Source: Bacillota bacterium
GTDB lineage: Bacteria > Bacillota > JAAYKD01
DNA length: 64,000 nucleotides
Direction of reading: 5' to 3'
NCBI GenBank assembly: GCA_963666425.2
Contig: OY762825.2
Span: 1,536,001-1,600,000 of the forward strand
Positions 1,836 to 57,366 of the stretch are shown here, piece by piece. The position numbers and the translations under genes are program-made. Positions within the stretch are counted from its first letter, which is position 1, and every line of letters starts with the position of its first letter. The notes beneath the pieces were generated by a model, which was given only the letters and a program-made list of their open reading frames with translations, was not told where the DNA came from and ran no database searches.

Positions 1836-1853
1836 CTCGTATATACTAGTAGT

Positions 1854-2070
1854 GCCAAGGTAACTCATTTACAGGGTACAGGAAGCGAGCCAAAGCCACT
1901 CTTTAGGTATCCAAGGGGTTTGCCCTTTGTGGTATAATTTTGTCAGGCAGAGGTCAACGTACTGTTCCCTGGGAATCGTTCCTGTGATGTAGAGTGTTGC
2001 CTCTGATCTGACAGAAATCTGCGTATTGGCTGGATAGGGTAAAATCCTTGTATTTCACGCGAGGTTGCAG
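1854..2070 (+). ncRNA. Predicted bridge RNA of IS110 copy 1 (target loop 1941-2013, donor loop 2019-2070; 5' end inferred)
   Basis: Nested stems TGTCAG/CTGACA, CAGAGG/CCTCTG, CAAC/GTTG and GGGAA/TTCCT enclose ACTGTTCCCT (1961-1970) and GATGTAG (1986-1992), which match the insertion sites. A second loop holds TGGCTGG and GCGAG, which match the end junction. Confidence 0.85.
1930..1938 (+). promoter_or_regulatory. Extended -10 (TGnTATAAT) inside the IS left end
   Basis: TGGTATAAT directly before the target-binding stem; no good -35. Confidence 0.4.
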
Positions 2071-2127
2071 CTGTCAGCGTCAGAGAGATCATCCTTTGCC
2101 GCATTCCAGTTTGAGGAGTTGCTGTAA

Positions 2128-3300
2128 ATGATTACTTTTGGCGTAGACATCGGTAAATTCCGTCACCAGGCGATCGCGGTGGACGCCAGTGGTCAAGCGC
2201 TGGCTCCCTCGTTTGCATTTGAAAATTCCGAAGAGGGCTTTCAATTGTTTTTGCAGAAGGTCGCTCTTTACCAAAAGCAAGATGCAATTTGCGTCGGCAT
2301 GGAAGCCACCGGTCATTACTGGCTGAATTTTTATTGTGTTTTACTCGATTTAGGAATTGAATTGCATGTGGTCAATCCCCTGCTCACCGACGCCATACGG
2401 CGCATGTCTGTCCGTAAAACCAAGACGGATACGGTGGATTGCGGTTATATCGCGGATGTGATCCGCATGGGACGTTATTCCGACGTAGCGGTACAAACGG
2501 AGGATGTCCAGAATTTACGCGAGTTATGCCGTTTCCGCTGTTCTCTGGTTGATGAGATTGCAAAGCACAAAAACCATGTAATTGGCGTGCTGGATCATCT
2601 TTTTCCGGAATATCACAAGCTTTTTTCAGATATTTTCGGTAAAACTTCGCTGGAGTTGCTCAGCAAGTATCCGTCACCGGATGCCATTCTGAAGCTCGGC
2701 ACAAAGCGGTTGGCTGATTTTTTAGCGAAGCATTCCCGCGGCAGTTTCGGTGAGGAAAAAGCGCTGGAGATCCGCAGCGCCTGCAAACACACAGTTGGGG
2801 TGAATAGAGCAAATGCTGCTCTATGCTTTGAATTACACCAAACCGTGGATCTGATTCAATTCATTGAAGAACAGATTGACGCAATTGAAAAAAAGATTGA
2901 GCAGATCTATTCCCAATGTGAATGCTATCTGGATACCATTATTGGTGTTGGAGTCACCTCGGCTGCGGTGATCTACTCGGAAATCGGCAATATTGATAAT
3001 TTCGAAAATCCGAAGAAACTGGCGGCATTTGCCGGTATTGACCCTTCGATTAAACAATCCGGTAATTTCACTTCAACGCACAACACGATGTCGAAGCGAG
3101 GCTCACCTTATCTGCGCAGAGCGCTCTGGAATGCCGCAACGGTTGCCGCGCAAAAAGATCCGGTCATGTCTGCTTTTTACCAGAAGAAACGCGACGAAGG
3201 AAAAGATTATATGACGGCAATTGGAGCTGTTACACATAAATTATGCAACATTGTTTTCGCTGTTTTAAGGGATAAAAAGCCTTATGTTCCCAGAATATAA
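2128..3300 (+). CDS. IS110-family DEDD transposase/recombinase
   Basis: GVDIGK, GMEATG and KTDTVD (DEDD tetrad); C-terminal Tnp20-type LAAFAGIDPSIKQSG...SKRGSPYLR. Confidence 0.97.
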   Translation: MITFGVDIGKFRHQAIAVDASGQALAPSFAFENSEEGFQLFLQKVALYQKQDAICVGMEATGHYWLNFYCVLLDLGIELHVVNPLLTDAIRRMSVRKTKTDTVDCGYIADVIRMGRYSDVAVQTEDVQNLRELCRFRCSLVDEIAKHKNHVIGVLDHLFPEYHKLFSDIFGKTSLELLSKYPSPDAILKLGTKRLADFLAKHSRGSFGEEKALEIRSACKHTVGVNRANAALCFELHQTVDLIQFIEEQIDAIEKKIEQIYSQCECYLDTIIGVGVTSAAVIYSEIGNIDNFENPKKLAAFAGIDPSIKQSGNFTSTHNTMSKRGSPYLRRALWNAATVAAQKDPVMSAFYQKKRDEGKDYMTAIGAVTHKLCNIVFAVLRDKKPYVPRI

Positions 3301-3335
3301 TTTTCGTTTTGCCACTTGACGTTTGATAGCTGGCT

Positions 3336-4106
3336 ACCTTTGTCCCATCGTTGTATCGTTTCGCTGTTTCATTGTTTCGGTGTTTCGTTGGTAAGTCGTT
3401 GTATCGTTTCGCTGTTTCATTGTTCTGTTCTTATGTCGTCAAATCGTTTCGTTGTTTACCCATCATCGTGCAACGACCATGTTGCGTTACGGAACGGTCA
3501 AGACCGTTCCCTACCTTTGCCCCATCGTTGTATCGTTTCGCTGTTTCATTGTTTCGCTGTTAGGTCGTCAAATCGTTTCGCTGTTTACCCATCATCGCGC
3601 AACAATCATGTTGCGTTACGGAACGGTCAAGACCGTTCCCTACCTTTGTCCCATCGTTGTATCGTTTCGCTGTTTCATTGTTCCGTTGTTAGGTCGTCAA
3701 ATCGTTTCATTGCTTACCCATCATCGTGCAACGACCATGTTGCGTTACGGAACGGTCAAGACCGTTCCCTACCTTTGCCCCATCGTTGCATCGTTTCGCT
3801 GTTTCATTGTTTCGTTGGTAAGTCGTTGTATCGTTTCGCTGTTTACCCATCATCGTGCAACGATCATGTTGCGTTACGGAACGGTCAAGACCGTTCCCTA
3901 CCTTTGCCCCATCGTTGTATCGTTTCGCTGTTTCATTGTTTCGTTGTTCCGTCGTTGCATCGTTTCGCTGTTCCGGTGTTTCGTTGGTAAGTCGTTGTAT
4001 CGTTTCGCTGTTTCATTGTTCCGTTGTTAGGTCGTCAAATCGTTTCATTGCTTACCCATCATCGTGCAACGACCATGTTGCGTTACGGAACGGTCAAGAC
4101 CGTTCC
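3336..4106 (+). repeat. REP-containing tandem array, segment 2
   Basis: Hairpins at 3491, 3620, 3749, 3878 and 4087 (spacings 129, 129, 129, 209). Confidence 0.95.
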
Positions 4107-4124
4107 CTCGTATATACTAGTAGT

Positions 4125-4341
4125 GCCAAGGTAACTCATTTACAGGGTACAGGAAGCGAGCCAAAGCCACTCTTTAGGTATCCAAGGGGTTTGCCCTTTG
4201 TGGTATAATTTTGTCAGGCAGAGGTCAACGTACTGTTCCCTGGGAATCGTTCCTGTGATGTAGAGTGTTGCCTCTGATCTGACAGAAATCTGCGTATTGG
4301 CTGGATAGGGTAAAATCCTTGTATTTCACGCGAGGTTGCAG
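4125..4341 (+). ncRNA. Predicted bridge RNA of IS110 copy 2
   Basis: Same sequence as copy 1. Confidence 0.85.
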
Positions 4342-4398
4342 CTGTCAGCGTCAGAGAGATCATCCTTTGCCGCATTCCAGTTTGAGGAGTTGCTGTAA

Positions 4399-5571
4399 AT
4401 GATTACTTTTGGCGTAGACATCGGTAAATTCCGTCACCAGGCGATCGCGGTGGACGCCAGTGGTCAAGCGCTGGCTCCCTCGTTTGCATTTGAAAATTCC
4501 GAAGAGGGCTTTCAATTGTTTTTGCAGAAGGTCGCTCTTTACCAAAAGCAAGATGCAATTTGCGTCGGCATGGAAGCCACCGGTCATTACTGGCTGAATT
4601 TTTATTGTGTTTTACTCGATTTAGGAATTGAATTGCATGTGGTCAATCCCCTGCTCACCGACGCCATACGGCGCATGTCTGTCCGTAAAACCAAGACGGA
4701 TACGGTGGATTGCGGTTATATCGCGGATGTGATCCGCATGGGACGTTATTCCGACGTAGCGGTACAAACGGAGGATGTCCAGAATTTACGCGAGTTATGC
4801 CGTTTCCGCTGTTCTCTGGTTGATGAGATTGCAAAGCACAAAAACCATGTAATTGGCGTGCTGGATCATCTTTTTCCGGAATATCACAAGCTTTTTTCAG
4901 ATATTTTCGGTAAAACTTCGCTGGAGTTGCTCAGCAAGTATCCGTCACCGGATGCCATTCTGAAGCTCGGCACAAAGCGGTTGGCTGATTTTTTAGCGAA
5001 GCATTCCCGCGGCAGTTTCGGTGAGGAAAAAGCGCTGGAGATCCGCAGCGCCTGCAAACACACAGTTGGGGTGAATAGAGCAAATGCTGCTCTATGCTTT
5101 GAATTACACCAAACCGTGGATCTGATTCAATTCATTGAAGAACAGATTGACGCAATTGAAAAAAAGATTGAGCAGATCTATTCCCAATGTGAATGCTATC
5201 TGGATACCATTATTGGTGTTGGAGTCACCTCGGCTGCGGTGATCTACTCGGAAATCGGCAATATTGATAATTTCGAAAATCCGAAGAAACTGGCGGCATT
5301 TGCCGGTATTGACCCTTCGATTAAACAATCCGGTAATTTCACTTCAACGCACAACACGATGTCGAAGCGAGGCTCACCTTATCTGCGCAGAGCGCTCTGG
5401 AATGCCGCAACGGTTGCCGCGCAAAAAGATCCGGTCATGTCTGCTTTTTACCAGAAGAAACGCGACGAAGGAAAAGATTATATGACGGCAATTGGAGCTG
5501 TTACACATAAATTATGCAACATTGTTTTCGCTGTTTTAAGGGATAAAAAGCCTTATGTTCCCAGAATATAA
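4399..5571 (+). CDS. IS110-family transposase/recombinase
   Basis: Protein identical to 2128..3300. Confidence 0.97.
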   Translation: MITFGVDIGKFRHQAIAVDASGQALAPSFAFENSEEGFQLFLQKVALYQKQDAICVGMEATGHYWLNFYCVLLDLGIELHVVNPLLTDAIRRMSVRKTKTDTVDCGYIADVIRMGRYSDVAVQTEDVQNLRELCRFRCSLVDEIAKHKNHVIGVLDHLFPEYHKLFSDIFGKTSLELLSKYPSPDAILKLGTKRLADFLAKHSRGSFGEEKALEIRSACKHTVGVNRANAALCFELHQTVDLIQFIEEQIDAIEKKIEQIYSQCECYLDTIIGVGVTSAAVIYSEIGNIDNFENPKKLAAFAGIDPSIKQSGNFTSTHNTMSKRGSPYLRRALWNAATVAAQKDPVMSAFYQKKRDEGKDYMTAIGAVTHKLCNIVFAVLRDKKPYVPRI

Positions 5572-5606
5572 TTTTCGTTTTGCCACTTGACGTTTGATAG
5601 CTGGCT

Positions 5607-5796
5607 ACCTTTGCCCCATCGTTGCATCGTTTCGCTGTTTCATTGTTTCGTTGGTAAGTCGTTGTATCGTTTCGCTGTTTCATTGTTCCGTTGTTAAGTC
5701 GTTGTATCGTTTCGCTGTTTCATTGTTTCGCTGTTAAGTCGTTGTATCGTTTCGCTGTTTACCCATCATCGTGCAACGATCATGTTGCGTTACGGA
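5607..5796 (+). repeat. REP-containing tandem array, terminal segment
   Basis: Same 8-mer linker and GCAAC hairpin; breaks off at GCGTTACGGA, just as the next REP hairpin would begin. Confidence 0.9.
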
Positions 5797-5860
5797 TTAG
5801 TAGATGCGGATCCAGCGTAATACCAGTCTTAGGCGTATTATCGCCAACGTACGGGCAGAT

Positions 5861-5884
5861 GTAGGGAACGGTCTTGACCGTTCC
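5861..5884 (+). repeat. Single GTAG-REP, inverted relative to the array
   Basis: GTAG-GGAACGGTC-TT-GACCGTTCC. Confidence 0.9.
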
Positions 5885-5992
5885 GCGTGACTCCATGATC
5901 CACACTCCCGTTTGACATTTACAAAAAAATAAGACAAGCGGAACAAATCCTGCTATAATAGGAAATGGAATAATTTGAAGGAGGATTCAACT

Positions 5993-6547
5993 ATGCAAAA
6001 ATACGCAATTCCTGCCGCTACCGTGTTAGCACCGGTGCCGGCTGTTTTGATTTCCAGCGGTGACTCACCGGAAAATTACAACATCGCTACCGCTTCCTGG
6101 ACCGGCACTGTCTGCAGTAAGCCACCGATGACCTACGTTTCCTTCCGACCGGCCACCCTCTCACAGGGTATCCTCTTACGTACAAGAGAATTCGTGATCA
6201 ATCTGATCACAGAGGACCAATGCGAAATGTTGGATTGGTGCGGCAGAGTCTCAGGCCGGGAACATAACAAATGGCAGGAGGCCGGTCTCACCCCGATCGC
6301 AGCCCAAAAAGTCAAGGCACCCTTAATTGCCGAATGCCCGGTCAATATTGAATGTAAAGTCACGCAAGTCTTAGAACTCGGTTCCCACTTTATGTATCTG
6401 GCGGAAATTGTCGCCGTCAATGCGGATGAAAAGTTTCAGCACGAGGGTAAATTGGATCTCAGCAACTTTAACACCATCGTCAACCGCGGCGGCTTTTATG
6501 TTCGTTTGGGTGAACCGATTGCCCGCATGGGTTTCTCTGTTTTGTAG
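5993..6547 (+). CDS. Flavin reductase family protein
   Basis: PVPAVLISS, EFVINL, APLIAECPVNIEC and GSHFMYLAEI; GAGGA RBS before the ATG at 5993. Confidence 0.9.
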   Translation: MQKYAIPAATVLAPVPAVLISSGDSPENYNIATASWTGTVCSKPPMTYVSFRPATLSQGILLRTREFVINLITEDQCEMLDWCGRVSGREHNKWQEAGLTPIAAQKVKAPLIAECPVNIECKVTQVLELGSHFMYLAEIVAVNADEKFQHEGKLDLSNFNTIVNRGGFYVRLGEPIARMGFSVL

Positions 6548-6582
6548 ACCTGCACGCGGAGAAATAAGCCTGATTTTTCAGC

Positions 6583-6617
6583 AAAAGCCATTGGTGTAAA
6601 AACCAATGGCTTTTTTT
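6583..6617. terminator. Bidirectional intrinsic terminator
   Basis: AAAAGCCATTGGT...ACCAATGGCTTTTTTT between convergent genes. Confidence 0.85.
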
Positions 6618-6624
6618 ATATCTG

Positions 6625-8067
6625 CTATTTGACTGCGGATGGTTTGATTCCTGCCGGAATGGGGCACTGATAACCCTCCGGACCAACCCGTTCAATTAGT
6701 TCAGCTTTGGCTTCCACTAATAACTGCGGCTGCAAAATCAAATCCAGACCGACACCAGCCATCGCCTTGGCAGCCGTCAGCATGCCATCGTGAGCCCAAT
6801 CTTCTTTGCCTTGGGCAACCTGCTGCCAGGAATGTCCCGGTGTATTCAGCGCGTAGCAGCTGCTGCGGCATTGAACCGTAGGAGTCAGCCAGGAAACGTC
6901 CGAAACATCGGTAGAACCGGAGGAAACTTTCTCGCTGGTCTGATAAGGCAGCAGTTTCGCCGAAATGGGATGAACCAATAATTCTGACGCCACTTTCTTG
7001 CCGGTGCGCTCACCAAACATGCCAATCAGAGTCTTCAGAGTACTGCCTTTTTCCTCTGTACTGAGCGATGCTTGGATTCCCTCGGCGTAAGCGATTTCCT
7101 GGGCGGTCGGCTTACGTTCCGGAATCAATTGTAAATTTTCATTCATTACTTTTTCCAATACTTCATTGGGAATCAGATTGGAACACGCCTTGTCAATCTG
7201 AATTTCCAGCTTGGTTTGAGTCATCAAAGCGGCGCCGCGAGCGATATCGCAGACACGCTCAAAAATATCCTGCACCAAGTTGTTCTTAGGAGCTCGGATT
7301 AAGTAGAGGACTTCGGCTAACGGCTGCACGACATTAGGGCTCTTGCCGCCCGCGTCGATCAAAGCGTAATGCACTCTGGCTTCGGAAATGATATGCTCCC
7401 TCAAATAATTGACGCCTACATTCATCAATTCTACGGCATCCAACGCGCTGCGGCCTAAATGCGGTGAAGCGCCGGCATGAGAAGCCCGACCGGTGAATTT
7501 GTAATAGACTTGGATATTCGCCAAAGAAGAACCGACAGAAGTTTGCGTCATTGCGCTGCCATGCCAAGTGATAGCGGCATCGATCGCATTGAAAACTCCC
7601 TCCCGCGCCATAAAGGCTTTACCGGACCCACCCTCTTCTCCCGGGCAGCCGAAATATTGGATGGTACAAGCAAGATGATTTTCTTTGACATAGTCGCGTA
7701 AAGCAACAGCGGCGGCCAAAGCGCCGGTACCCAGCAAATGATGACAGCAGCCATGCCCGTTTCCTCCGGGTTCAATGGCTTCCCGCTGGGCGCTGCCGGC
7801 TTTTTGGCTCAAACTGGAAAGCGCGTCGAATTCACCCAGGAAGCCAATCACCGGTTTCCCCTCACCCCAAGTGCCAACAAAGGCACAGGGAATGCGTGCT
7901 CCGAGATCCGTCACCGTAAAGTCCTCAGCTTTCAGTGCCTCAATTAAAGCAGCGGAAGATTTGTGTTCCTGAAAACGGGTTTCAGGAGTTACCCAAATCC
8001 GATCGCTTAAAGCAGACCATTGGTTTTTCTTCTGTTCGATGAGCTCAAATAAGTGTTGTTTCGACAT
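6625..8067 (-). CDS. M20 amidohydrolase, AbgB-like (aminobenzoyl-glutamate utilization protein B family)
   Basis: GFLGEFDAL, GHGCCHHLLG, PGEEGGSGK, GRSALDAVELM, GSTDVSDVSW and HSWQ; start taken at MSKQ on RBS spacing. Confidence 0.85.
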   Translation of the reverse strand: MSKQHLFELIEQKKNQWSALSDRIWVTPETRFQEHKSSAALIEALKAEDFTVTDLGARIPCAFVGTWGEGKPVIGFLGEFDALSSLSQKAGSAQREAIEPGGNGHGCCHHLLGTGALAAAVALRDYVKENHLACTIQYFGCPGEEGGSGKAFMAREGVFNAIDAAITWHGSAMTQTSVGSSLANIQVYYKFTGRASHAGASPHLGRSALDAVELMNVGVNYLREHIISEARVHYALIDAGGKSPNVVQPLAEVLYLIRAPKNNLVQDIFERVCDIARGAALMTQTKLEIQIDKACSNLIPNEVLEKVMNENLQLIPERKPTAQEIAYAEGIQASLSTEEKGSTLKTLIGMFGERTGKKVASELLVHPISAKLLPYQTSEKVSSGSTDVSDVSWLTPTVQCRSSCYALNTPGHSWQQVAQGKEDWAHDGMLTAAKAMAGVGLDLILQPQLLVEAKAELIERVGPEGYQCPIPAGIKPSAVK

Positions 8068-8158
8068 AAATTTCATCCTTTCCGATTTATCATTTCCAAC
8101 CGCCTTCTTGGCAGTCAGGGTAGCACCCATTTTTATGGCAATTATTAGAAAAAATCAC

Positions 8159-8186
8159 TTGCATTTCCCGGTGAATTCGCTATAAT
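8159..8186 (+). promoter_or_regulatory. Sigma-A-like promoter
   Basis: TTGCAT-N16-TATAAT. Confidence 0.65.
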
Positions 8187-8192
8187 AGAAGC

Positions 8193-8415
8193 AATCGCGG
8201 TAGCAGCGAATTCGCGGAGAGATCAAGGCAACTTGTCACTTACGAATGTCTGCCGACGTCTGCGAGCATAAACCGTCTCTACTGTTTTGGTAGCAGACCG
8301 TGGCCGAGGCCGGCTCATTTGTCAGACGATGCGAGGGCTTGCGGCGGTTGTTCATCAACCGCCGGAGCGATTTTATATTTGCCACCTCAGAGATGAACGC
8401 TCTGGGGTTTTTTTT
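8193..8415 (+). ncRNA. Candidate standalone structured RNA (6S-like size; family unassigned)
   Basis: Own promoter and terminator (CCTCAGAG...CTCTGGGG-T8); closing stem AATCGC/GCGATT; internal pairings GTCTG/CAGAC, GAGC/GCTC and GGCGGTTG/CAACCGCC; no credible ORF. Confidence 0.5.
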
Positions 8416-8418
8416 ACC

Positions 8419-9726
8419 CTATTCGCAGAGCAATGCGGCAATATCCGCCTCGAACAGCGCTTTAAAGAGCATCGTCATGGCATATTGGTCGTCGGTTCCG
8501 CTCAATTCGCGAACCGAGTGCATGGAGAGCATCGGATTGCCGATATCGACCGTGGTTGCGCCATAAGCCGCAGCCATGATGGGGCCAATCGTACCGCCGC
8601 CGCGGGCATCACTGTGATTGACTAAAATTTGATAAGGAATCTGGTTCTTGGCGCAGAGCCATTTAAAGATCGCTGTGCCGCGGCTGGAAGTCGCATAGGA
8701 TTGGAAGTTTGCCAATTTTAAGACCGGACCTTTGTTCATATAGACCGGATGGTTCAAGTCGCTTTTGGCAGCATAGCCCGGATGCACCGCATGCGCCATA
8801 TCGGCAGAAAATAAAAGGCTGGCCGACATCGCCCGGTATTTATCTTCCACGCTGAGGTTTAATTTCTCACAGATGCGGTCGATTGTCATCATCAGGCTGT
8901 TGCTGCGGGCACCGCGGGTGGAATTGGAGCCGATTTCTTCGTGGTCATAAGCGGCCACGATGATATTCTGTTCACTGTCGGCAGCTACCGCTTCCAACAA
9001 ACCGCAAAAAGCAGCATACACCATGGCCACATCATCCAGATGAGGTGCGGAAATCCATTCCTCCTTCTGCCCCACAAAACAGGCAGGCTGGATATCGATC
9101 GGCTGCAGTTCAAAACTTAAAATGTCCTCTGCCTGTACACCGGCCGCTGCTGCCAACCAATTCATGAATTGTTTTTCTTTGCCCTCATTCAAACCAAAGA
9201 AAGGACAAAGCTCTGTTTGCGCGCTGACCTTCGCATTTTCGTTGACATCACGCACCAAATGAATGGCAGCACTGGGGATGATGAAAATCGGTTGATTGAT
9301 CTGGATGGAAACGCTCTCAATGCCCGTTGCTGTTTTGACACAGATTCGTCCGGCTAAACCAAGCGGACGGTCAAACCAACCGCGAATGATCGGTCCGCCA
9401 TAAATTTCGATCATCAAGCGTTCCACATTTTGCTCGATGATGGTGCCAACCGGTTTGATTTTCAAGGCCGGCGAATCATGATGCGCCGCGCCGATCCGGA
9501 AGCCATTGGCAGCCAGCTCTCTGCTGCCCAAACGGAAGGCGACCAATTGCGTACCGTCTTTGACAAAATAGTAGAGCTGTTTTTGCTGCAATTGCCAGGG
9601 CTGACGTTCCTGTAATTCCACTGCTCCCGCTGCCTGCAGCATTTTCTTTAAAGCGGTGACCGATTGAAACGGCGTGGGAGAGGCATCCAAGTGCGCCATT
9701 AAGCGCTGGGCATACTCTTTTTTCAT
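8419..9726 (-). CDS. M18 family (aspartyl) aminopeptidase
   Basis: AHHDSP, HLDD, DHEEIGS, SADMAHAVHP, GGGTIGP and LSMHSVRE. Confidence 0.92.
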   Translation of the reverse strand: MKKEYAQRLMAHLDASPTPFQSVTALKKMLQAAGAVELQERQPWQLQQKQLYYFVKDGTQLVAFRLGSRELAANGFRIGAAHHDSPALKIKPVGTIIEQNVERLMIEIYGGPIIRGWFDRPLGLAGRICVKTATGIESVSIQINQPIFIIPSAAIHLVRDVNENAKVSAQTELCPFFGLNEGKEKQFMNWLAAAAGVQAEDILSFELQPIDIQPACFVGQKEEWISAPHLDDVAMVYAAFCGLLEAVAADSEQNIIVAAYDHEEIGSNSTRGARSNSLMMTIDRICEKLNLSVEDKYRAMSASLLFSADMAHAVHPGYAAKSDLNHPVYMNKGPVLKLANFQSYATSSRGTAIFKWLCAKNQIPYQILVNHSDARGGGTIGPIMAAAYGATTVDIGNPMLSMHSVRELSGTDDQYAMTMLFKALFEADIAALLCE

Positions 9727-9804
9727 CTGTCAGATTCATCCTTTCTATATTAAGTTGATCGATCACGAAACCAAATCAAGCAGCGATTCGGTTATCGCAG
9801 AACG

Positions 9805-10734: not shown

Positions 10735-11025
10735 GCTGTGTCCTCATTTCTCAATGTGTTATTTTACTGATCCTAAGACATTTCTGGCAAACAGTATTTT
10801 TTTCCACACGCAGCCGATGAATTCCTGCATACGAAATAATCTGACCAGCTGAAATCGCTGAAATATCCGGCGAATCAATACATTTTTTGCTCCCATTCCG
10901 GATAGAGAAGCAAGCTTGCGTTTTCTGACGCGTGATGTTATAATCTATCATAAGATTACTGCAAACATCTATTAATGGTTATATTCTTTTTTATTTACAG
11001 ATCTGTTTCCATGGAGGTAACGGCA

Positions 11026-44097: not shown

Positions 44098-44111
44098 TTT
44101 GTTACCTTCCA

Positions 44112-44765: not shown

Positions 44766-44766
44766 T

Positions 44767-47592: not shown

Positions 47593-47631
47593 TGTAAAAA
47601 CCTCATTTATTTTTCCAGAAATTTACTATTG

Positions 47632-47660
47632 ATTATAGCTCTTTCCGAATCAATTTACAA
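47632..47660 (-). promoter_or_regulatory. Promoter of the ATPase-trkA operon
   Basis: TTGTAA-N17-TATAAT. Confidence 0.65.
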
Positions 47661-47755
47661 GTACTAGATCAGAAGATGAAACGAGGCGCGCGGTAGAATT
47701 GGTATTGAATTGCCAATGCAACAATCATTTTAGTATTTAAGCAAAATACTCGTCA

Positions 47756-47796
47756 AAGAAGGCGGAACCGCTGCTCAAAACGGTTCCGCCTTTTTT
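47756..47796. terminator. Terminator-like hairpin downstream of citG
   Basis: AAGAAGGCGGAACCG...CGGTTCCGCCTTTTTT. Confidence 0.7.
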
Positions 47797-47859
47797 GTAT
47801 GCAAACCAGATGTCTACTCTGTTTGCCGTGGCGCAACCGATTGATGAGTTTTTCGCAAA

Positions 47860-48714: not shown

Positions 48715-49721
48715 GCCATCAGCTCCTGTCGATGCTGGTTCAGGTAGCGCATGGTGCTCGAGGGCACCATCAGCGCGATGTCGTCCCAGTCACTTTGGGT
48801 CAGTAAAGCACGCACGCGGCTGGCGCTGATGATACTGCCGTCTTGGGTCCGCTGGCGCGGGATGATTTCAACCGCAATCCCGGCCGCAGGCAGGATTTGC
48901 TGCATGCGCTCGTTATATTGCGCGGTCAGCGCATCCAGCGGTTCTTCACCGGCAAAGCGGCGGGAAATTGCCAGGGCCGGAGCCAAATAACGCGTAAAAA
49001 GCGTGAGATCCAAATCGATCTGCACCGCAGCGGCAACCCCGGCGCTTTTTAGAAAATAAGCGGGAAACAAGCCGGCTGCAATACTGTAGGGTCCGCCGGC
49101 ATGCATTTTCACCTTCGCTAAATGCGCTGTGCCTGCCTCCAACATCTGCCAACGAGCGGCAAAGGAAAAGAGAGGCTGTTCTGTCTGCAGCAATAAAACG
49201 TGAACCGTATCGCTGACCGCTGCCGCCGCTTCGATTAAGGCGAGATGGCCCAGCGTAAAGGGATTGCAGTTCATCACAATGCCTGAGCTGCAGCCAGGCT
49301 GTTTTGCTTTGGCAAGCGCCTGGCAAAAGCGAGCAATGCCGCGTTTTTCACTTTCTAAAAACAAGACATCGTCTGTGGCTGCCACAGCGGTAAAGGCCAG
49401 GTTTTGAAAAACGGCCAAATTTCGCGGTTTAGTAAAAACAAAAATGTTGTCGATGCCGCTGCTTTGCATTTGCTGACGCAGATGGGTCACCAGCTGATTA
49501 ATCAAGCCCAACCCTTCCGCTTCCGGTAAGACTGCGATACACTTCATGGTGTTGCCGCTGTAACCGCCGCCGGCTATGAGCTGCTCGCCGCAAAACAGGC
49601 CGGCGTAATAATCCAGCGCTTCACGGCGCAGCCCTGCTTGCCCGAGTAATTCATCGACCTGCTTTTGCACGGCAGGCAGCGACAGCGGCAGGCTGCGCAA
49701 TTCCGGCAGGCAATTCATCAT
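48705..49721 (-). CDS. citC: Citrate lyase ligase
   Basis: VMNCNPFTLGH, FPAYF, RFAGEEP and ISASRVR. Confidence 0.93.
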   Translation of the reverse strand: MMNCLPELRSLPLSLPAVQKQVDELLGQAGLRREALDYYAGLFCGEQLIAGGGYSGNTMKCIAVLPEAEGLGLINQLVTHLRQQMQSSGIDNIFVFTKPRNLAVFQNLAFTAVAATDDVLFLESEKRGIARFCQALAKAKQPGCSSGIVMNCNPFTLGHLALIEAAAAVSDTVHVLLLQTEQPLFSFAARWQMLEAGTAHLAKVKMHAGGPYSIAAGLFPAYFLKSAGVAAAVQIDLDLTLFTRYLAPALAISRRFAGEEPLDALTAQYNERMQQILPAAGIAVEIIPRQRTQDGSIISASRVRALLTQSDWDDIALMVPSSTMRYLNQHRQELMACV

Positions 49722-50239
49722 GTAATATCACCCATTTCAAAATGACTGACCATTTGTTCAATTTTAGCCAAAAGCTCCGCCAGAGGATGGCTGCGATTTC
49801 TGGCGCAGGCTGCCCCGTCTTCGGAGCAGAGCAAACACGGACGCGGCGGATACGCCAGTTCACGGCGGCCGATCTGTTTGCCATCCGCAGCAAAGACATC
49901 CAGATCGAACAAGCGGCCCAGCGCATGTTCGTTTTCAATCCGGCAGAGCGCCTGCTTGACCAGGAAAGCATCCGTTGGTAAAACAAAATAAGCCTCGCAG
50001 CCGGTCGCCCGGTAAATTTGCCGGCGATAACTGATCTGATCGGCAAAAACCGCTTCCACCGCAGCCAGCGCGGCGGCAAAGATAACTTCGCTGTGATGAT
50101 TCCGCTTAACCGGCCCCGGCAGATTGACGTTCAGGCAAATAAGAGTGGAGTGATAGGTCCGCAGCAGTTGCTGCTGCAGCAAAGCCCGTGCATCTCTTAC
50201 GCAAAGCATTTCACTCAAAGTCACCGCATGTTCAAGCAT
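49718..50239 (-). CDS. citX: Apo-citrate lyase phosphoribosyl-dephospho-CoA transferase
   Basis: PGPVK, GRLFDLDV and CARNRSH. Confidence 0.92.
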   Translation of the reverse strand: MLEHAVTLSEMLCVRDARALLQQQLLRTYHSTLICLNVNLPGPVKRNHHSEVIFAAALAAVEAVFADQISYRRQIYRATGCEAYFVLPTDAFLVKQALCRIENEHALGRLFDLDVFAADGKQIGRRELAYPPRPCLLCSEDGAACARNRSHPLAELLAKIEQMVSHFEMGDIT

Positions 50240-51698
50240 GCTCGTTCATTTGATGCACACGATCTATTACCGTACCGTCCGGTGCTGTTACGAGCGCCAC
50301 CACCCGCTCTGTAAAAGGCAAGGCATCCGGCTTGCCGGCAATTTGCTCCGCCAGATCTTTCAGCTGTTCGATGGTTGTTAACCGAATCCCGGCCGCTTGC
50401 AGCGTCTTCTGCAAGTCCGCTCGCAGCGGATTCACCGCCACACCGCGGTCAGTGACCAAAACATCGCAGTTTTTTCCCTCTGTACAAATGGTATTGACCT
50501 GCTGCACAACACAAGGAATGCGGCCACGCAGCAGAGGTGTGACCAGAACGGTCAGAGCCGCCCCGGCGGCGGTATCCGAATGTCCGCCGATGGCACCGCG
50601 AATGATCCCGTCCGAGCCGGTCAGTACGTTGACATTGAAGGCAGTATCCACCTCCAAAGCGGATAGAATCACCACATCCAACTGATGAATCAGCGAACCG
50701 GCATCAAAAGGATTAGCGTATTGATTGCCGTCTATTTCAAAATGATTGGCGTTGCTGCCCAATGACTGCGCCGCTTCCAGGTCGAAATCCTGGACGTCGA
50801 ACAATTGGCCAATCAAACCCTCTTCCTGTAGATGAACCATCTGCGCCGTAATGCCGCCCAAGGCAAAGCGCGCCTTGACCCCTTGCTCCAGCATCGCTTC
50901 TTTTAGAAAACGGGTAACGGCCAGGGCTGCCCCACCGCTGCCTGTCTGCAAAGAAAAGCCATCCTGAAAATAACCGGAAGCAATGATTACCTGCGCCGCG
51001 CGCTCGGCAATCAGCAAATCGCGGGGGTTTTGGCTGAAACGGGTCGCCCCGCTGGATATTTTGGCGGAATCACCGATGGAATCGAGCAAGACTACGCAGT
51101 CTACTTCGCTCGACGGGATACTCGGCGCAGCGAGGGGAGCAGCAACCAAGTAATTGGTCAGGATCACCGTTTTTTTCGCATAGTGTGCATCCACTTTGGC
51201 ATAACCCAGGCTGCCGCAGATATCGACGCCTTCGCTCTGGTTACGCAGCACGCCGGCAGCATTGCCATAAACATCCGCCACGCTGGCACCTAAAAAGGCA
51301 ATATCAATTGGCAGGCGGCCATCGGCAATGGCTGCCGCCCGTCCGCCATGACTGCGGAAAACAACCGGTTCACTTAAAAGACCATGCGAAATCGCCTCGG
51401 CCAGTTTGCCGCGGCAACCCGAGCTTTCCATATGCGTCACTACGCCATTTTTGATATGTTCAAGCAAAGGCGCATGCACATCGGTCAGCGAGCTAGGCGC
51501 CAATTTCAGGTCATGGAAGCCCATTTTGGCAATCACCGCCATAACTTGATTTAAAACCTGATCACCTTCCCGAAAATGATGGTGAAATGAGATCGTCATA
51601 CCGTCCTGCAGTCCCATCTGTTGGATGGCCTGCTCGAGCGAGGCAGCCAATTTATCCGGCCGTTTTTCAACGACGGTATGCTCAGAAACTTTGTTCAT
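50232..51698 (-). CDS. citF: Citrate lyase alpha subunit
   Basis: GMTISFHHHFR, RSHGGR, QTGSGG and GGHSDTA. Confidence 0.95.
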   Translation of the reverse strand: MNKVSEHTVVEKRPDKLAASLEQAIQQMGLQDGMTISFHHHFREGDQVLNQVMAVIAKMGFHDLKLAPSSLTDVHAPLLEHIKNGVVTHMESSGCRGKLAEAISHGLLSEPVVFRSHGGRAAAIADGRLPIDIAFLGASVADVYGNAAGVLRNQSEGVDICGSLGYAKVDAHYAKKTVILTNYLVAAPLAAPSIPSSEVDCVVLLDSIGDSAKISSGATRFSQNPRDLLIAERAAQVIIASGYFQDGFSLQTGSGGAALAVTRFLKEAMLEQGVKARFALGGITAQMVHLQEEGLIGQLFDVQDFDLEAAQSLGSNANHFEIDGNQYANPFDAGSLIHQLDVVILSALEVDTAFNVNVLTGSDGIIRGAIGGHSDTAAGAALTVLVTPLLRGRIPCVVQQVNTICTEGKNCDVLVTDRGVAVNPLRADLQKTLQAAGIRLTTIEQLKDLAEQIAGKPDALPFTERVVALVTAPDGTVIDRVHQMNEHA

Positions 51699-52601
51699 TT
51701 ACAGCGCCTCCGATGCTTTGATCACGCCGGCAGCAGCAGCCAGCTGCAGCACATGCTGCGCCCGCAGCACAACCGGCCGATCAATCATTTTACCATTCAG
51801 GCTGATCACACCGCTGCCCCGCGCCTCCGCTTCCTGCAATGCCGCGATGATCCGCTGCGCCTGCTCCACTTCCGGCTTCGTCGGTGTAAAAATACGATGA
51901 ATCGGCTGAATTTGTCTGGGATGAATCACCGATTTGCCGTCAAAACCAAGATTCTTGATCAATCTGGTTTCATAAATCAACTGCTCCTCATTATTGAGAT
52001 CAGAATAGACCGTATCCAAAGCAGCAATACCGGCTGCCCGGGCGGCCAGGACAATCGTCTGACGTGCCAATTGCAGTTCGGCTCCGCTCGCCGTACGTTG
52101 GCAGCGCAAATCCGCACAGAAATCCTCCGCACCCAAAGCAATGCCAATCAAGCGCGGCGAAGCGACTGCGATGGCATAAGCTTCGATCACCCCGCGCGCG
52201 CTTTCAATGGCAGCCATCATCAGCGTAGAACCAATGGGGCGATGGTGCTTTGCTTCCATTTCCGCAATCACCTGCTCGCAATCCCGCACATCCTGCGCTG
52301 TTTCTGTTTTGGGCATGCGCAGCACATCAACACCGGCGCAGACCATGGCCTCAATATCCTGACGGCCAAAGGGCGTACTGAGCGGATTGATCCGCACCAC
52401 CAGCTCAACGCCTCCGTAATCGATGGTTCGTAACGCCTCGTAAACCAATTGGCGGGCAGCATCTTTTTCGGATAAGGAAACGGAATCTTCCAGATCAAAC
52501 ATCAGCGCATCGGCTCCGTAAATCTGCGCATCCCGAATCATACCGGGTTGATTGCCGGGGATAAACATCATGGTGCGGCGCAGTCTAGACTTCTCCGTCA
52601 T
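51699..52601 (-). CDS. citE: Citrate lyase beta subunit
   Basis: RRTMMF, FDLEDSV, LGAEDF and GKSVIHPRQ. Confidence 0.95.
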   Translation of the reverse strand: MTEKSRLRRTMMFIPGNQPGMIRDAQIYGADALMFDLEDSVSLSEKDAARQLVYEALRTIDYGGVELVVRINPLSTPFGRQDIEAMVCAGVDVLRMPKTETAQDVRDCEQVIAEMEAKHHRPIGSTLMMAAIESARGVIEAYAIAVASPRLIGIALGAEDFCADLRCQRTASGAELQLARQTIVLAARAAGIAALDTVYSDLNNEEQLIYETRLIKNLGFDGKSVIHPRQIQPIHRIFTPTKPEVEQAQRIIAALQEAEARGSGVISLNGKMIDRPVVLRAQHVLQLAAAAGVIKASEAL

Positions 52602-52899
52602 CTTGCTGCCTCCCTTGCCATGAAAATTCTGTGCACTCACTAGCCCGCAGGACCGCCGTGGTCAGACGGGCCCGGATCGCACAGTCCAGCGCGCCTTTAT
52701 CGGTGGCCGTCACCAGAGCAGAAAATATCTGTAGCGCCGCCAGTGTTTCTGTGATCGTCAGCCGAATTTGGCGGCCATAAAGCCGTTCCACACTGCTGGT
52801 CAAATCGATTTCAATACCATTGCCTTGATTCGGCTCGATCTCGATCAGAATATCCCCCGATTCCAAGGTCCCGGCTGTCGCTTTTTTACTTAATTGCAT
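52585..52899 (-). CDS. citD: Citrate lyase acyl carrier protein
   Basis: AGTLESGD and DKGALDC. Confidence 0.95.
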   Translation of the reverse strand: MQLSKKATAGTLESGDILIEIEPNQGNGIEIDLTSSVERLYGRQIRLTITETLAALQIFSALVTATDKGALDCAIRARLTTAVLRASECTEFSWQGRQQDDGEV

Positions 52900-52959
52900 T
52901 TTCTCAACTCCAAATCAATCGATTGTTTGAGGACTTTAAAAAGCGATTCGCTTGCTGAT

Positions 52960-53787
52960 TTATGCTAAGAGACCGAAATAAACCAAAACGGCAATACCCA
53001 GAACAATTCGATACCAACCGAAAACGGCAAAATCATTTTTCTGAATATAGCGCATCAGAAAACGAATGGCCAAGAGGGAAACCACAAAAGCCACAATCGT
53101 ACCGACCGCCAGAATCGCCCACTCGGTTTGCGTCAGGACAAAGCCAAATTTCAAAATGCGCAGGGCACTGGCACCCAGCATGACCGGAATGGCCATAAAG
53201 AAAGAAAACTCCGCCGCAATGGTGCGGGAAGCGCCCAGCAGCATACCGCCTAAAATTGTCGCTCCGGAGCGGGAGGTGCCGGGAACCAAGGCCAGGACCT
53301 GAAAGATACCCATCAAGGCGGCAGTGCCGTAGCCGAAGTGATCCATCTTGCGAATCTTTGCCTGCCGCGATTTGTTGCGCCGCTCCAAAACAATAAACAG
53401 CACACCGTAGACAATCAGCATGATCGCCACCGTCAGATAGCCGCTGAGCTTTGCTTCTACCCAATCATTAAACAAAAGTCCAATGATCCCCGCCGGAACG
53501 GAAGCCACAAAAACCTTCAGCCATAACTCGATTGTCTCTTTGCGTTCGCGCTTGGATTTACTGAGAGCAAAAGGATTCAAACGATTAAAATAAAGTACAA
53601 TGACAGCCAAAATAGAGCCCAACTGCACAACTACCAGGAACATATTCATAAAGGTCGCCGACACATTCAAATGCATCAACTCGTCCAATAAAATCATATG
53701 TCCGGTGCTACTGACCGGCAGCCATTCCGTAACGCCCTGCACAAGCCCCAAGAGCGCTGCTTTCGCAATTTCCAACCAATTCATCAT
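52960..53787 (-). CDS. uppP: Undecaprenyl-diphosphatase (BacA)
   Basis: [26 protein letters not shown] and FGWYRI. Confidence 0.95.
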
Positions 53788-53844
53788 AAACCGCCTCCCT
53801 TAATACGATTATTTTAGCACGTTACCAGGCTTTTTACCATGACT

Positions 53845-53864
53845 ATTTCGTAATATTACGAAAT
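53845..53864. promoter_or_regulatory. Perfect 20-bp palindrome, candidate operator
   Basis: ATTTCGTAAT/ATTACGAAAT about 60 bp upstream of uppP. Confidence 0.45.
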
Positions 53865-53972
53865 TGATATCATTTTCCACTGTGTAGGAATTATTACGCC
53901 CTTTGAAGAAATGATCAAGCAATTGGCGGGAAGAGGAAGCGTCCGCAACCTGTCAAAGAAGGAAGCACCCGC

Positions 53973-54168
53973 TCAAGTACATTGGGCAGAACCAACAAAA
54001 TAGATAGGTAGACCGATCAAGCACACTGGGCAAAACCAACAAAATGTAGAAGCAAACCGATCAAACACATTGGCCGAACCAACAAAAATATAAAGCAAAC
54101 CGATCAAGCGCATTGGGCAGAACCAACAATAATATAAAGCAAGCCGATGAAGCACATTGGGCAGATGT
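53973..54168 (+). repeat. Degenerate ~44-bp tandem repeat (about 4.3 copies)
   Basis: ACATTGGGCAGAACCAACAAAATA...CCGATCAAGC units ending in GGGCAGATGT-AG at the IS end. Confidence 0.9.
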
Positions 54169-54203
54169 AGCCAGCTATCAAACGTCAAGTGGCAAAACGA
54201 AAA

Positions 54204-55376
54204 TTATATTCTGGGAACATAAGGCTTTTTATCCCTTAAAACAGCAAAAACAATGTTGCATAATTTATGTGTAACAGCTCCAATTGCCGTCATATAATCT
54301 TTTCCTTCGTCGCGTTTCTTCTGGTAAAAAGCAGACATGACCGGATCTTTTTGCGCGGCAACCGTTGCGGCATTCCAGAGCGCTCTGCGCAGATAAGGTG
54401 AGCCTCGCTTCGACATCGTGTTGTGCGTTGAAGTGAAATTACCGGATTGCTTAATCGAAGGGTCAATACCGGCAAATGCCGCCAGTTTCTTTGGATTTTC
54501 GAAATTATCAATATTGCCGATTTCCGAGTAGATCACCGCAGCCGAGGTGACTCCAACACCAATAATGGTATCCAGATAGCATTCACATTGGGAATAGATC
54601 TGCTCAATCTTATTCTCAATTGCGTCAATCTGTTCTTCAATGAATTGAATCAGATCCACGGTTTGGTGTAATTCAAAGCATAGAGCAGCGTTCGCTCTAT
54701 TCACACCAACAGTGTGTCTGCAGGCGCTGCGGATCTCCAGCGCTTTTTCCTCACCGAAACTGCCGCGGGAATGCTTCGCTAAAAAATCAGCCAACCGCTT
54801 TGTGCCGAGCTTCAGAATGGCATCCGGTGACGGATACTTGCTGAGCAACTCCAGCGAAGTTTTACCGAAAATATTGGAAAACAGCTTGTGATATTCCGGA
54901 AAAAGGTGATCCAGCACGCCAATTACATGGTTTTTGTGCTTTGCAATCTCATCAACCAGAGAACAGCGGAAACGGCATAACTCGCGTAAATTCTGGACAT
55001 CCTCCGTTTGTACCGCTACGTCGGAATAACGTCCCATGCGGATCACATCCGCGATATAACCGCAATCCACCGTATCCGTCTTGGTTTTACGGACAGACAT
55101 GCGCCGTATGGCGTCGGTGAGCAGGGGATTGACCACATGCAATTCAATTCCTAAATCGAGTAAAACACAATAAAAATTCAGCCAGTAATGACCGGTGGCT
55201 TCCATGCCGACGCAAATTGCATCTTGCTTTTGGTAAAGAGCGACCTTCTGCAAAAACAATTGAAAGCCCTCTTCGGAATTTTCAAATGCAAACGAGGGAG
55301 CCAGCGCTTGACCACTGGCGTCCACCGCGATCACCTGGTGACGGAATTTACCGATGTCTACGCCAAAAGTAATCAT
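54204..55376 (-). CDS. IS110-family transposase/recombinase
   Basis: About 99% identical to copy 1; motifs intact. Confidence 0.97.
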   Translation of the reverse strand: MITFGVDIGKFRHQVIAVDASGQALAPSFAFENSEEGFQLFLQKVALYQKQDAICVGMEATGHYWLNFYCVLLDLGIELHVVNPLLTDAIRRMSVRKTKTDTVDCGYIADVIRMGRYSDVAVQTEDVQNLRELCRFRCSLVDEIAKHKNHVIGVLDHLFPEYHKLFSNIFGKTSLELLSKYPSPDAILKLGTKRLADFLAKHSRGSFGEEKALEIRSACRHTVGVNRANAALCFELHQTVDLIQFIEEQIDAIENKIEQIYSQCECYLDTIIGVGVTSAAVIYSEIGNIDNFENPKKLAAFAGIDPSIKQSGNFTSTHNTMSKRGSPYLRRALWNAATVAAQKDPVMSAFYQKKRDEGKDYMTAIGAVTHKLCNIVFAVLRDKKPYVPRI

Positions 55377-55433
55377 TTACAGCAACTCCTCAAACTGGAA
55401 TGCGGCAAAGGATGATCTCTCTGACGCTGACAG

Positions 55434-55650
55434 CTGCAACCTCGCGTGAAATACAAGGATTTTACCCTATCCAGCCAATACGCAGATTTCTGTCAGATCA
55501 GAGGCAACACTCTACATCACAGGAACGATTCCCAGGGAACAGTACGTTGACCTCTGCCTGACAAAATTATACCACAAAGGGCAAACCCCTTGGATACCTA
55601 AAGAGTGGCTTTGGCTCGCTTCCTGTACCCCGTAAATGAGTTACCTTGGC
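55434..55650 (-). ncRNA. Predicted bridge RNA of IS110 copy 3
   Basis: Guide loops identical to copy 1. Confidence 0.85.
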
Positions 55651-55668
55651 ACTACTAGTATATACGAG

Positions 55669-55754
55669 GGAACAGTCTTGACTGTTCCGAACGCATCGCA
55701 TCAGTCAGCTTGATATGCTTATGGGTGCGCGGAATGGTCAAGACCATTCCCTAC
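55669..55754. repeat. Inverted REP doublet (REPIN/BIME-like), left GTAG split by IS copy 3
   Basis: GGAACAGTC-TT-GACTGTTCC, 42-bp spacer, GGAATGGTC-AA-GACCATTCC-CTAC. Confidence 0.88.
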
Positions 55755-55807
55755 CTTGCACAATGTTTATAACAAATCTGCAATGGTATGCATATTAACG
55801 CCAAGTC

Positions 55808-55866
55808 ACATTGGGCAGAACCAACAAAATAGATTGGCAACCCGATCAAACACATTGGGCAAATGT
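55808..55866 (+). repeat. ~44-bp repeat (about 1.3 copies)
   Basis: Same unit as 53973-54168, abutting IS copy 4. Confidence 0.85.
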
Positions 55867-55901
55867 AGCCAGCTATCAAACGTCAAGTGGCAAAACGAAA
55901 A

Positions 55902-57074
55902 TTATATTCTGGGAACATAAGGCTTTTTATCCCTTAAAACAGCAAAAACAATGTTGCATAATTTATGTGTAACAGCTCCAATTGCCGTCATATAATCTTT
56001 TCCTTCGTCGCGTTTCTTCTGGTAAAAAGCAGACATGACCGGATCTTTTTGCGCGGCAACCGTTGCGGCATTCCAGAGCGCTCTGCGCAGATAAGGTGAG
56101 CCTCGCTTCGACATCGTGTTGTGCGTTGAAGTGAAATTACCGGATTGCTTAATCGAAGGGTCAATACCGGCAAATGCCGCCAGTTTCTTTGGATTTTCGA
56201 AATTATCAATATTGCCGATTTCCGAGTAGATCACCGCAGCCGAGGTGACTCCAACACCAATAATGGTATCCAGATAGCATTCACATTGGGAATAGATCTG
56301 CTCAATCTTATTCTCAATTGCGTCAATCTGTTCTTCAATGAATTGAATCAGATCCACGGTTTGGTGTAATTCAAAGCATAGAGCAGCGTTCGCTCTATTC
56401 ACACCAACAGTGTGTCTGCAGGCGCTGCGGATCTCCAGCGCTTTTTCCTCACCGAAACTGCCGCGGGAATGCTTCGCTAAAAAATCAGCCAACCGCTTTG
56501 TGCCGAGCTTCAGAATGGCATCCGGTGACGGATACTTGCTGAGCAACTCCAGCGAAGTTTTACCGAAAATATTGGAAAACAGCTTGTGATATTCCGGAAA
56601 AAGGTGATCCAGCACGCCAATTACATGGTTTTTGTGCTTTGCAATCTCATCAACCAGAGAACAGCGGAAACGGCATAACTCGCGTAAATTCTGGACATCC
56701 TCCGTTTGTACCGCTACGTCGGAATAACGTCCCATGCGGATCACATCCGCGATATAACCGCAATCCACCGTATCCGTCTTGGTTTTACGGACAGACATGC
56801 GCCGTATGGCGTCGGTGAGCAGGGGATTGACCACATGCAATTCAATTCCTAAATCGAGTAAAACACAATAAAAATTCAGCCAGTAATGACCGGTGGCTTC
56901 CATGCCGACGCAAATTGCATCTTGCTTTTGGTAAAGAGCGACCTTCTGCAAAAACAATTGAAAGCCCTCTTCGGAATTTTCAAATGCAAACGAGGGAGCC
57001 AGCGCTTGACCACTGGCGTCCACCGCGATCGCCTGGTGACGGAATTTACCGATGTCTACGCCAAAAGTAATCAT
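55902..57074 (-). CDS. IS110-family transposase/recombinase
   Basis: Differs from copy 3 by one residue (A vs V at position 15). Confidence 0.97.
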   Translation of the reverse strand: MITFGVDIGKFRHQAIAVDASGQALAPSFAFENSEEGFQLFLQKVALYQKQDAICVGMEATGHYWLNFYCVLLDLGIELHVVNPLLTDAIRRMSVRKTKTDTVDCGYIADVIRMGRYSDVAVQTEDVQNLRELCRFRCSLVDEIAKHKNHVIGVLDHLFPEYHKLFSNIFGKTSLELLSKYPSPDAILKLGTKRLADFLAKHSRGSFGEEKALEIRSACRHTVGVNRANAALCFELHQTVDLIQFIEEQIDAIENKIEQIYSQCECYLDTIIGVGVTSAAVIYSEIGNIDNFENPKKLAAFAGIDPSIKQSGNFTSTHNTMSKRGSPYLRRALWNAATVAAQKDPVMSAFYQKKRDEGKDYMTAIGAVTHKLCNIVFAVLRDKKPYVPRI

Positions 57075-57131
57075 TTACAGCAACTCCTCAAACTGGAATG
57101 CGGCAAAGGATGATCTCTCTGACGCTGACAG

Positions 57132-57348
57132 CTGCAACCTCGCGTGAAATACAAGGATTTTACCCTATCCAGCCAATACGCAGATTTCTGTCAGATCAGA
57201 GGCAACACTCTACATCACAGGAACGATTCCCAGGGAACAGTACGTTGACCTCTGCCTGACAAAATTATACCACAAAGGGCAAACCCCTTGGATACCTAAA
57301 GAGTGGCTTTGGCTCGCTTCCTGTACCCCGTAAATGAGTTACCTTGGC
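57132..57348 (-). ncRNA. Predicted bridge RNA of IS110 copy 4
   Basis: Guide loops identical to copy 1. Confidence 0.85.
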
Positions 57349-57366
57349 ACTACTAGTATATACGAG

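Follow-up and report, generated by a model that had tools for sequence, protein, structure and literature searches.

A 64-kb stretch of DNA (hereafter the window; C1:1536001-1600000 of an 18-contig, 3.2-Mb assembly, genome G000) carries four copies of one IS110-family insertion sequence (IS), recognized from a listing of open reading frames (ORFs) and by repeat finding, and every copy splits a repetitive extragenic palindrome (REP) at the same CT dinucleotide, separating the hairpin of the repeat from the remainder of its GTAG tag. Given its insertion sites, the complementarity between its guides and its targets, a scaffold with covarying stems, an empty allele and intact genes, this element is very probably an active or recently active member of the IS110 group; a bridge RNA specified by the 290 nt of its left end would guide the recombinase.

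Insertion at one dinucleotide of the repeat

With one CT counted, the element is 1498 bp long; its non-coding left end measures 290 nt and its right end 35 nt, a layout shared by the IS110 group, in which the left end carries the bridge RNA (PMC11208160). Copy 1 (1838-3335, right-hand CT included) and copy 2 (4109-5606), which have the same sequence, lie on the forward strand, and copies 3 (55867-57364) and 4 (54169-55666) on the reverse strand. The left core CT is found at 1836-1837, 4107-4108, 57365-57366 and 55667-55668 for copies 1 to 4, respectively, next to REP hairpins at 1816-1835 and 4087-4106 on the forward strand and at 57367-57386 and 55669-55688 on the reverse strand. An earlier, sequence-only reading of this DNA was bounded by positions 1836 and 57366, which are thus the left CTs of copies 1 and 3 and the outermost core dinucleotides.

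The left border of every copy in the window reads GGAAC[G/A]GTCAAGAC[C/T]GTTCC-CT, and the right border is the element's own terminal CT followed by AC[C/A]T. A blastn search of the whole genome yielded ten full copies with 98.9-100% identity and one 83-nt remnant, while another genome of the same genus (G001) holds a single copy with 97% identity. The hairpin-CT and CT-AC junctions are present in all ten full copies and in that of G001 (11 out of 11), each with CT on both sides and without a longer duplication; the flanks outside the REP differ from locus to locus. When the element and one CT are taken out, hairpin-CT-AC is obtained, the form of 175 uninterrupted hairpins in the genome. Chance is excluded as the cause of this shared site because the REP hairpins, some 195 of roughly 24 nt, cover only about 0.15% of the 3.2 Mb.

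Two different repeat contexts are involved. Copies 1 and 2 interrupt a direct tandem array of 129-bp units (1177-5800 of the window), and copies 3 and 4 another repeat array at about 53960-57450. Contig C9 of G001 contains the orthologue of the latter locus without an IS: its flanks are 80-83% identical, the flank to the left of copy 3 joins the flank to the right of copy 4, and between them stands an intact REP, ...GGAACAGTCAAGACTGTTCC-CT-AC.... The sequence of this empty site agrees with precise insertion at the CT. The sequence-only reading had described for the four copies in the window the hairpin-CT and CT-AC borders, the restoration of the repeat on removal of the element plus one CT, and the two repeat contexts, and it had suggested examining all genomic copies and empty alleles. 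Its description holds and extends to both genomes; no insertion outside a REP or at a variable position was found, since all 11 full copies share the junction position.

One array REP, at 1691-1716 and 125 nt upstream of copy 1, is followed by CTTTGC rather than CTACCTTTGC, with four bases missing directly after the CT core. This site is unique among the 195 hairpins, and it could have arisen by slippage between two CTs or be the scar of an off-register excision.

The assignment of the element to the IS110 family, already made in the sequence-only reading, is confirmed by the profile searches. The 390-aa recombinase gene of copy 1 (2128-3300, forward strand; 4399-5571 forward, 55902-57074 reverse and 54204-55376 reverse in copies 2, 3 and 4) encodes the domains DEDD_Tnp_IS110 (PF01548, E = 1.8e-40) and Transposase_20 (PF02371, E = 8.2e-26) and reaches 263 bits, above the cut-off of 140, with the NCBIfam model NF033542 'IS110 family RNA-guided transposase'. 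The ORF is intact in 11 of 11 copies, ten of this genome and one of G001. In a HMMER alignment to the recombinase of IS621 from Escherichia coli (8wt6_A), the motifs EATG, KTDTVD and MSKxG are aligned and correspond to E60, D102/D105 and S241, which are among the catalytic residues given for IS621 (E60, D102, D105 and S241; PMC11208158). The first Asp (D11) falls outside the aligned stretch, and GVDIGK at residues 5-10 was read from the translation, unaligned.

Guides in the predicted bridge RNA

The left ends of this element and its relatives share a scaffold. When the 215 nt that precede the start codon were aligned for 41 elements, a -10 box and two stem-loops were apparent, with two poorly conserved stretches, one on each side of the first internal loop, and two well-conserved ones in the second; column conservation in this alignment is lowest in the target-guide columns and highest in the donor-guide columns. 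When 39 elements (this one and 38 relatives) were folded with RNAalifold, the enclosing stems were predicted and compensatory changes were found in 15 of 15 pairs. In copy 1, the predicted bridge RNA spans 1944-2100 of the forward strand as two stem-loops with internal loops, and its putative transcription would start downstream of an extended -10 box, TGGTATAAT (1930-1938, forward strand), read by eye and from the alignment.

The first internal loop would carry both target guides. Its 5' side, ACUGUUCCCU in the RNA, contains the left target guide (ACTGTTCCCT, 1961-1970, forward strand), which has the top-strand sequence of the hairpin's 3' arm followed by CT and would pair with the bottom strand. 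Its 3' side, GAUGUAG, is the right target guide (GATGTAG, 1986-1992, forward strand), the complement of top-strand CTACATC, which comprises the core CT and the right flank. At the best sites the matches reach 10 nt on the 5' side and 7 nt on the 3' side. Both anchors proposed in the sequence-only reading are therefore found where it had put them, the right guide, which ends in GUAG, on the tag and the left guide, a copy of the 3' hairpin arm, on the family-specific stem. Polarity and lengths fit those reported for IS621, in which the 5' guide pairs with the bottom strand over 8-9 nt and the 3' guide with the top strand over 4-7 nt, with the core included in both (PMC11208160).

The donor guide regions are predicted, also on the forward strand, at 2026-2033 (TTGGCTGG), where GCTGG repeats the 5 right-end nucleotides that directly precede the core, and at 2058-2064 (CGCGAGG), where CGAG is the complement of CT and the first two left-end bases (CG). 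Variants of the left donor guide recur in the right ends of the relatives that carry them: AGCCGG in 9 of 9 elements, AGTTGG in 8 of 10 and AGCTGG in 14 of 36.

The left guide is a perfect match to the CA/TG stem variant of the REP and pairs with the dominant variant through one U-G wobble. Copy D (C1:706185) carries a U126C change that turns this guide into ACCGTTCCCT, a perfect 10-nt match to the dominant variant, which is the one it occupies. The chance that exactly U126C should be among the 11 differences of copy D is about 0.002, and the C at this position is probably derived, because the copy in G001 has U. Across relatives, an average of 3.07 of the 5 nt that follow the right-hand CT agree with the prediction from the homologous columns of the right guide, compared with 1.74 after permutation; none of 2000 permutations attains the observed value.

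Several points weigh against this interpretation. The covariation just described was measured on 27 relatives only, since of 57 elements only 33 had a right end that could be placed and 27 a CT, which left 30 out of the test. Matches of the donor guides extend over just 5 nt (GCUGG) and 4 nt (CGAG), with a tentative register at the core; the left guide fits the dominant REP variant in 10 of 11 copies only by means of the U-G wobble; and there is a mismatch at the third base after the core in 3 of 10 sites. In an unanchored longest-match test, too permissive for the right guide, its 7 nt were reached by 168 of 2000 shuffles; the 10 nt of the left guide were reached by 7 of 2000. The single-sequence RNA fold is no better than that of shuffled sequences (z = -1.48), no Rfam family was found in a scan of positions 1700-3450 of the window with E up to 1, and a clean circle junction was not seen in the assembled contigs of public runs. 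The avoidance of the GGAATGG/CCATTCC variant (0 of 50 sites occupied) is not significant (two-sided Fisher p = 0.064). Nor is a preference between stem variants, with 2 of 13 perfect-match sites and 8 of 117 wobble sites occupied, and a consensus promoter scan gave nothing on the forward strand of the left end.

We infer a transcribed RNA, RNA-guided recombination and a circular intermediate. Recombination at the CT would then place the element between the hairpin and the remainder of the GTAG tag, leaving one CT on each side. The circle junction would read ...GATAGCTGG-CT-CGTATATAC..., leaving 16-18 nt between the TTGACG of the right end (3316-3321, forward strand, read directly from the sequence) and the TATATA/TATACT with which the left end starts, and it may thus form a junction promoter. 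For IS621, a promoter reconstituted at the circle junction is reported (PMC11208158). Because about 185 REPs carry the site, the genome would offer many safe extragenic landing sites, often several per REP array, which would also account for the neighbouring pairs of copies.

The repeat family and its candidate transposase

Judged by its sequence and arrangement, the targeted repeat behaves as a GTAG-type REP. A genome-wide search with the 20-nt hairpin (up to three mismatches) returned 195 oriented copies, of which 175 are followed by CTAC (GTAG on the other strand) and ten by CTCG, the IS junction, so that 185 have the CTAC or its IS-split form. The stems fall into three variants with paired, compensatory changes: 117 CG/CG, 50 TG/CA and 12 CA/TG. 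The copies are grouped in some 25 arrays, part of them direct and part alternating like bacterial interspersed mosaic elements (BIMEs); at C1:578114-579874, for example, plus and minus orientations alternate at spacings of mostly 113 and 71 nt (165 in two units). Measured with ORF length as a proxy for gene annotation, 7.7% of the 195 REP sites lie in open frames of at least 200 codons, compared with 83.8% of 1000 random positions.

In the window, the array of REPs is direct, not alternating. An uninterrupted target (hairpin plus CTAC) is found at 1366-1389 on the forward strand, and others start at 1495, 3491, 3620, 3749 and 3878. The 129-bp units of 1177-5800 also hold short sub-repeats resembling CGTTTCGCTGTT and a second small palindrome, and most REPs of the genome sit in similar arrays with periods of about 72-160 nt.

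The genome has three matches to Y1 transposases, and one of them, a 179-aa ORF at C1:532979-533518 with REPs on both sides, is a candidate REP-associated tyrosine transposase (RAYT). Its best NCBIfam model is NF047646, of that very name, with 68.8 bits, below the cut-off of 80. The other two Y1_Tnp genes (C1:435734-436066, where a 245-aa ORF was read, and C8:4493-4825) have no REP within 3 kb; neither is likely to be the copy associated with the repeats.

Matches to the REP pattern number 184 in this genome and 69 in G001, and a search of 29 further genomes from the same family, order or phylum gave none. REPs and IS copies are located only on contigs C1, C2, C16 and C17. A 2013 survey of GTAG repeats reports them from Proteobacteria, Cyanobacteria, Chloroflexi and the Planctomycetes-Verrucomicrobia-Chlamydiae (PVC) group (PMC3733652). 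A literature search pairing RAYT or REPIN (REP doublets forming hairpins) with Firmicutes returned nothing useful, which does not establish that Bacillota systems are absent from print.

Alternative explanations

The shared flanks might have been inherited, with units of IS plus repeat multiplied by unequal recombination in the tandem arrays rather than created by targeting. This would suit the fact that 8 of the 10 copies form four neighbouring pairs of the same orientation within REP arrays, that two of these pairs are nearly identical (0 differences between the copies at 1838 and 4109, 1 between those at 54169 and 55867) and that copies 1 and 2 have left flanks agreeing to 99% where they were compared; these two pairs could be duplicated array units rather than separate insertions. 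The other two pairs, however, are separate insertions, because the difference matrix places 14-15 substitutions within each. Identical copies also occur at distant loci whose flanks are unrelated beyond the REP (C1:560959 and C1:707993), copies 1 and 2 are identical to a copy on contig C17, the copy in G001 lies in yet another context, and an empty site exists at the orthologous locus of copies 3 and 4. No more than 2 of the 10 copies could be owed to duplication, and at least eight insertions in this genome look independent, so an inherited origin of the shared site is very unlikely. We also consider it unlikely that the recombinase or a host factor reads the REP hairpin as a structure, with the RNA matches being secondary or forming part of a dual gate of sequence and structure. 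A perfect hairpin stands directly 5' of the core in every target, sites are occupied despite a wobble or mismatch to the guides, and a 2026 preprint reports for ISPpu10 that a stem-loop in the target adds specificity (10.64898/2026.03.19.712850). In contrast, the guide positions and polarity are those that direct IS621, relatives with the same scaffold insert at sites devoid of hairpins (loci L004, L063 and L079, for example), and the right-guide columns covary with the flanks across the 27 relatives. The hairpin structure may nonetheless contribute in addition to guidance by the RNA.

Finally, the hairpin repeats might not be independent REPs at all but leftovers or by-products of the IS, for instance solo ends or a miniature derivative. 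The left guide copies part of the repeat, and both the IS and the repeat family are confined to this genus among the 31 genomes searched. Nevertheless, 175 hairpins have no adjoining IS-end sequence, G001 has its 69 repeats against a single IS, the repeats display the GTAG tag, compensatory stem variants and alternating BIME-like arrays, and a Y1 transposase gene whose best model is a RAYT lies among them, all of which makes this origin scarcely credible. Guidance of the recombinase to the REPs by the element's own RNA is thus the reading that we retain.

Remnant, polymorphism and host

The 83-nt remnant is an IS left end with 87% identity (57457-57539, listed on the forward strand and inverted relative to copy 3) that adjoins a REP hairpin at 57430-57449. 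This hairpin is of the GGAATGG/CCATTCC variant, the junction is divergent, with GCG replacing CT, and the remnant extends nearly to the stop codon of the ORF at 57549-58322. In public run X3, a 47.5-kb contig passes from the flank at 53967 through 58 other letters to the right end of copy 3, skipping copy 4; this hints at a copy-number polymorphism, with one IS against two in the window (53900-57600), in an alignment rendered ambiguous by the repeats. A 1600-nt contig of run X6, from a freshwater metagenome, leads from an IS left end through some 70 other letters to an IS right end and may represent a tandem pair or an assembly loop; its IS differs at about 42 of some 1550 aligned bases. The plasmid collection contained no sequence matching the element at the DNA level.

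The sequence-only reading had also supposed a probable Bacillota host. DNA polymerases of the PolC type mark Bacillota and a few allied groups, and the one encoded here scores 1138 bits against a cut-off of 1043 that only 3 of 14 control genomes passed, so that 'probable Bacillota' stands. LpxC and Spo0A were both not found in this 98.5%-complete assembly; for the host phylum, the PolC score and the lack of LpxC were the most useful results. RpoB is 55-69% identical to that of five named genomes over unequal ranges, which does not discriminate the phyla. The isoleucyl-tRNA synthetase (IleRS) falls in a protein-atlas cluster described as 'commonest Bacillota', with the phylum known for five members, and is 57% identical to that of the metagenome-assembled genome (MAG) that holds L004; neither is decisive. 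Small contigs (C3, C5, C7, C10, C12 and C15) have a G+C content of 0.22-0.63 compared with 0.47 on the main one, and contamination of the assembly is rated at 6.85%.

Relatives and comparison with known systems

The nearest recombinases found share 44-64% identity with this one, nearly all of them in records with a Bacillota label. Most of these relatives (loci L005-L083) have left guides ending in CCTCCT and insertion sites without hairpins; the guides, of the form xCACCTCCT, resemble the complement of a strong Shine-Dalgarno sequence, and in the Peptostreptococcus copies L063 and L079 a CAT lies 7-8 nt before the CCTCCT of the left flank. Given these guides and flanks, CCTCCT-type elements may land just upstream of ribosome-binding sites. 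In L044, L047 and L049, from a single MAG, an IS110-type gene resides inside a 2784-bp element (about 1202-3985 of each locus) bounded by TGTAGG...CCTACA, with a 24-25-bp direct duplication of the insertion site, unlike IS110 junctions.

The closest recombinase, with 64% identity, is that of L004, in a MAG labelled Clostridiales bacterium. This element shares the left-end scaffold, the ends (CGTATATA... and ...GATAGCTGG-CT) and a right guide ending in GTAG, but its left guide is TTTCGCCCCT, and no hairpin adjoins the one insertion site that is visible. The target predicted for L004 is not repeated in its genome (30 matches compared with 45 for a reversed control), and the hairpin beside L019/L020 occurs once per genome (up to three mismatches), at the occupied site itself. 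With L019/L020 being single-copy and L004 below its control, neither candidate for a second REP-parasitizing lineage among the relatives with GTAG-type right guides was upheld. The suggestion in the sequence-only reading that REP parasitism is a general niche for this group consequently fails in the element's own clade, in which CCTCCT-type guides prevail and the sites of the two GTAG-type relatives examined are not repeated; for the IS110 family at large, the idea is already in print (PMC1525189, PMC11208160).

Tentatively, and with somewhat more doubt than confidence, we put forward a wider picture: a monoderm, PolC-bearing (Bacillota-like) genus would have its own GTAG-REP/RAYT system, and an IS110 element from a clade aiming mainly at CCTCCT would have had its bridge RNA re-tuned to that REP, arriving independently at the CT of GTAG that IS621 uses, with U and C alleles of the left guide that match two stem variants of the REP. 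If this is true, the two guide alleles are a natural snapshot of the co-evolution of guide and target, one base at a time. That REPs serve as safe, abundant landing pads for IS110 elements and are read by a bridge RNA is already in print, as mechanism and as ecological strategy, and for this reason the case opens no new question; new here are the host and the REP family. Its value lies in showing the strategy cleanly in nature beyond the Proteobacteria, along with a natural polymorphism of the guide, and in documenting a REP/RAYT-like system for a genus that is probably of the Bacillota. Moreover, the pair of guide alleles, together with the three target variants, provides a means to measure the tolerance for wobbles and mismatches in a bridge recombinase distant from IS621.

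REP targeting by the IS110 family has been in print since 2003-2006 (PMC1525189; PMC11208160). ISPpu9, ISPpu10, ISPa11, ISPsy8, ISRm19 and ISRm22, of the IS110/IS1111 family, are described as inserting in REPs, with REP clusters acting as hot spots (PMC1525189, PMC12288879); all of them are from Proteobacteria, and the likeness drawn here is by description only. The closest parallel in strategy is IS621, as the sequence-only reading had recognized. Both elements have a two-domain recombinase architecture, a CT core and a left end with a non-coding RNA, predicted in the present case, whose two internal loops bear the guides (PMC11208160). The natural target given for IS621, ATCAGGCCTAC at the end of E. 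coli REPs, likewise has its CT within CTAC, that is GTAG (PMC11208160), and in both cases the left guide corresponds to the hairpin arm and the right one to the tag. The core in the CTAC tag of a REP-like repeat thus has the same geometry in the two systems. The differences are that IS621 is a distant homologue (79 bits over a partial alignment, with a 328-aa chain compared with 390 aa here), that the REP family is another one and that the host phylum is another one too. Since closer relatives carry other guides, the strategy shared with IS621 is, from these sequence comparisons, best read as convergence, probably eased by a programmable guide and a conserved CT core. With such a guide, IS110 lineages that are unrelated could arrive at the one feature that does not vary among GTAG REPs and that contains the complement of the CT core common to these recombinases.

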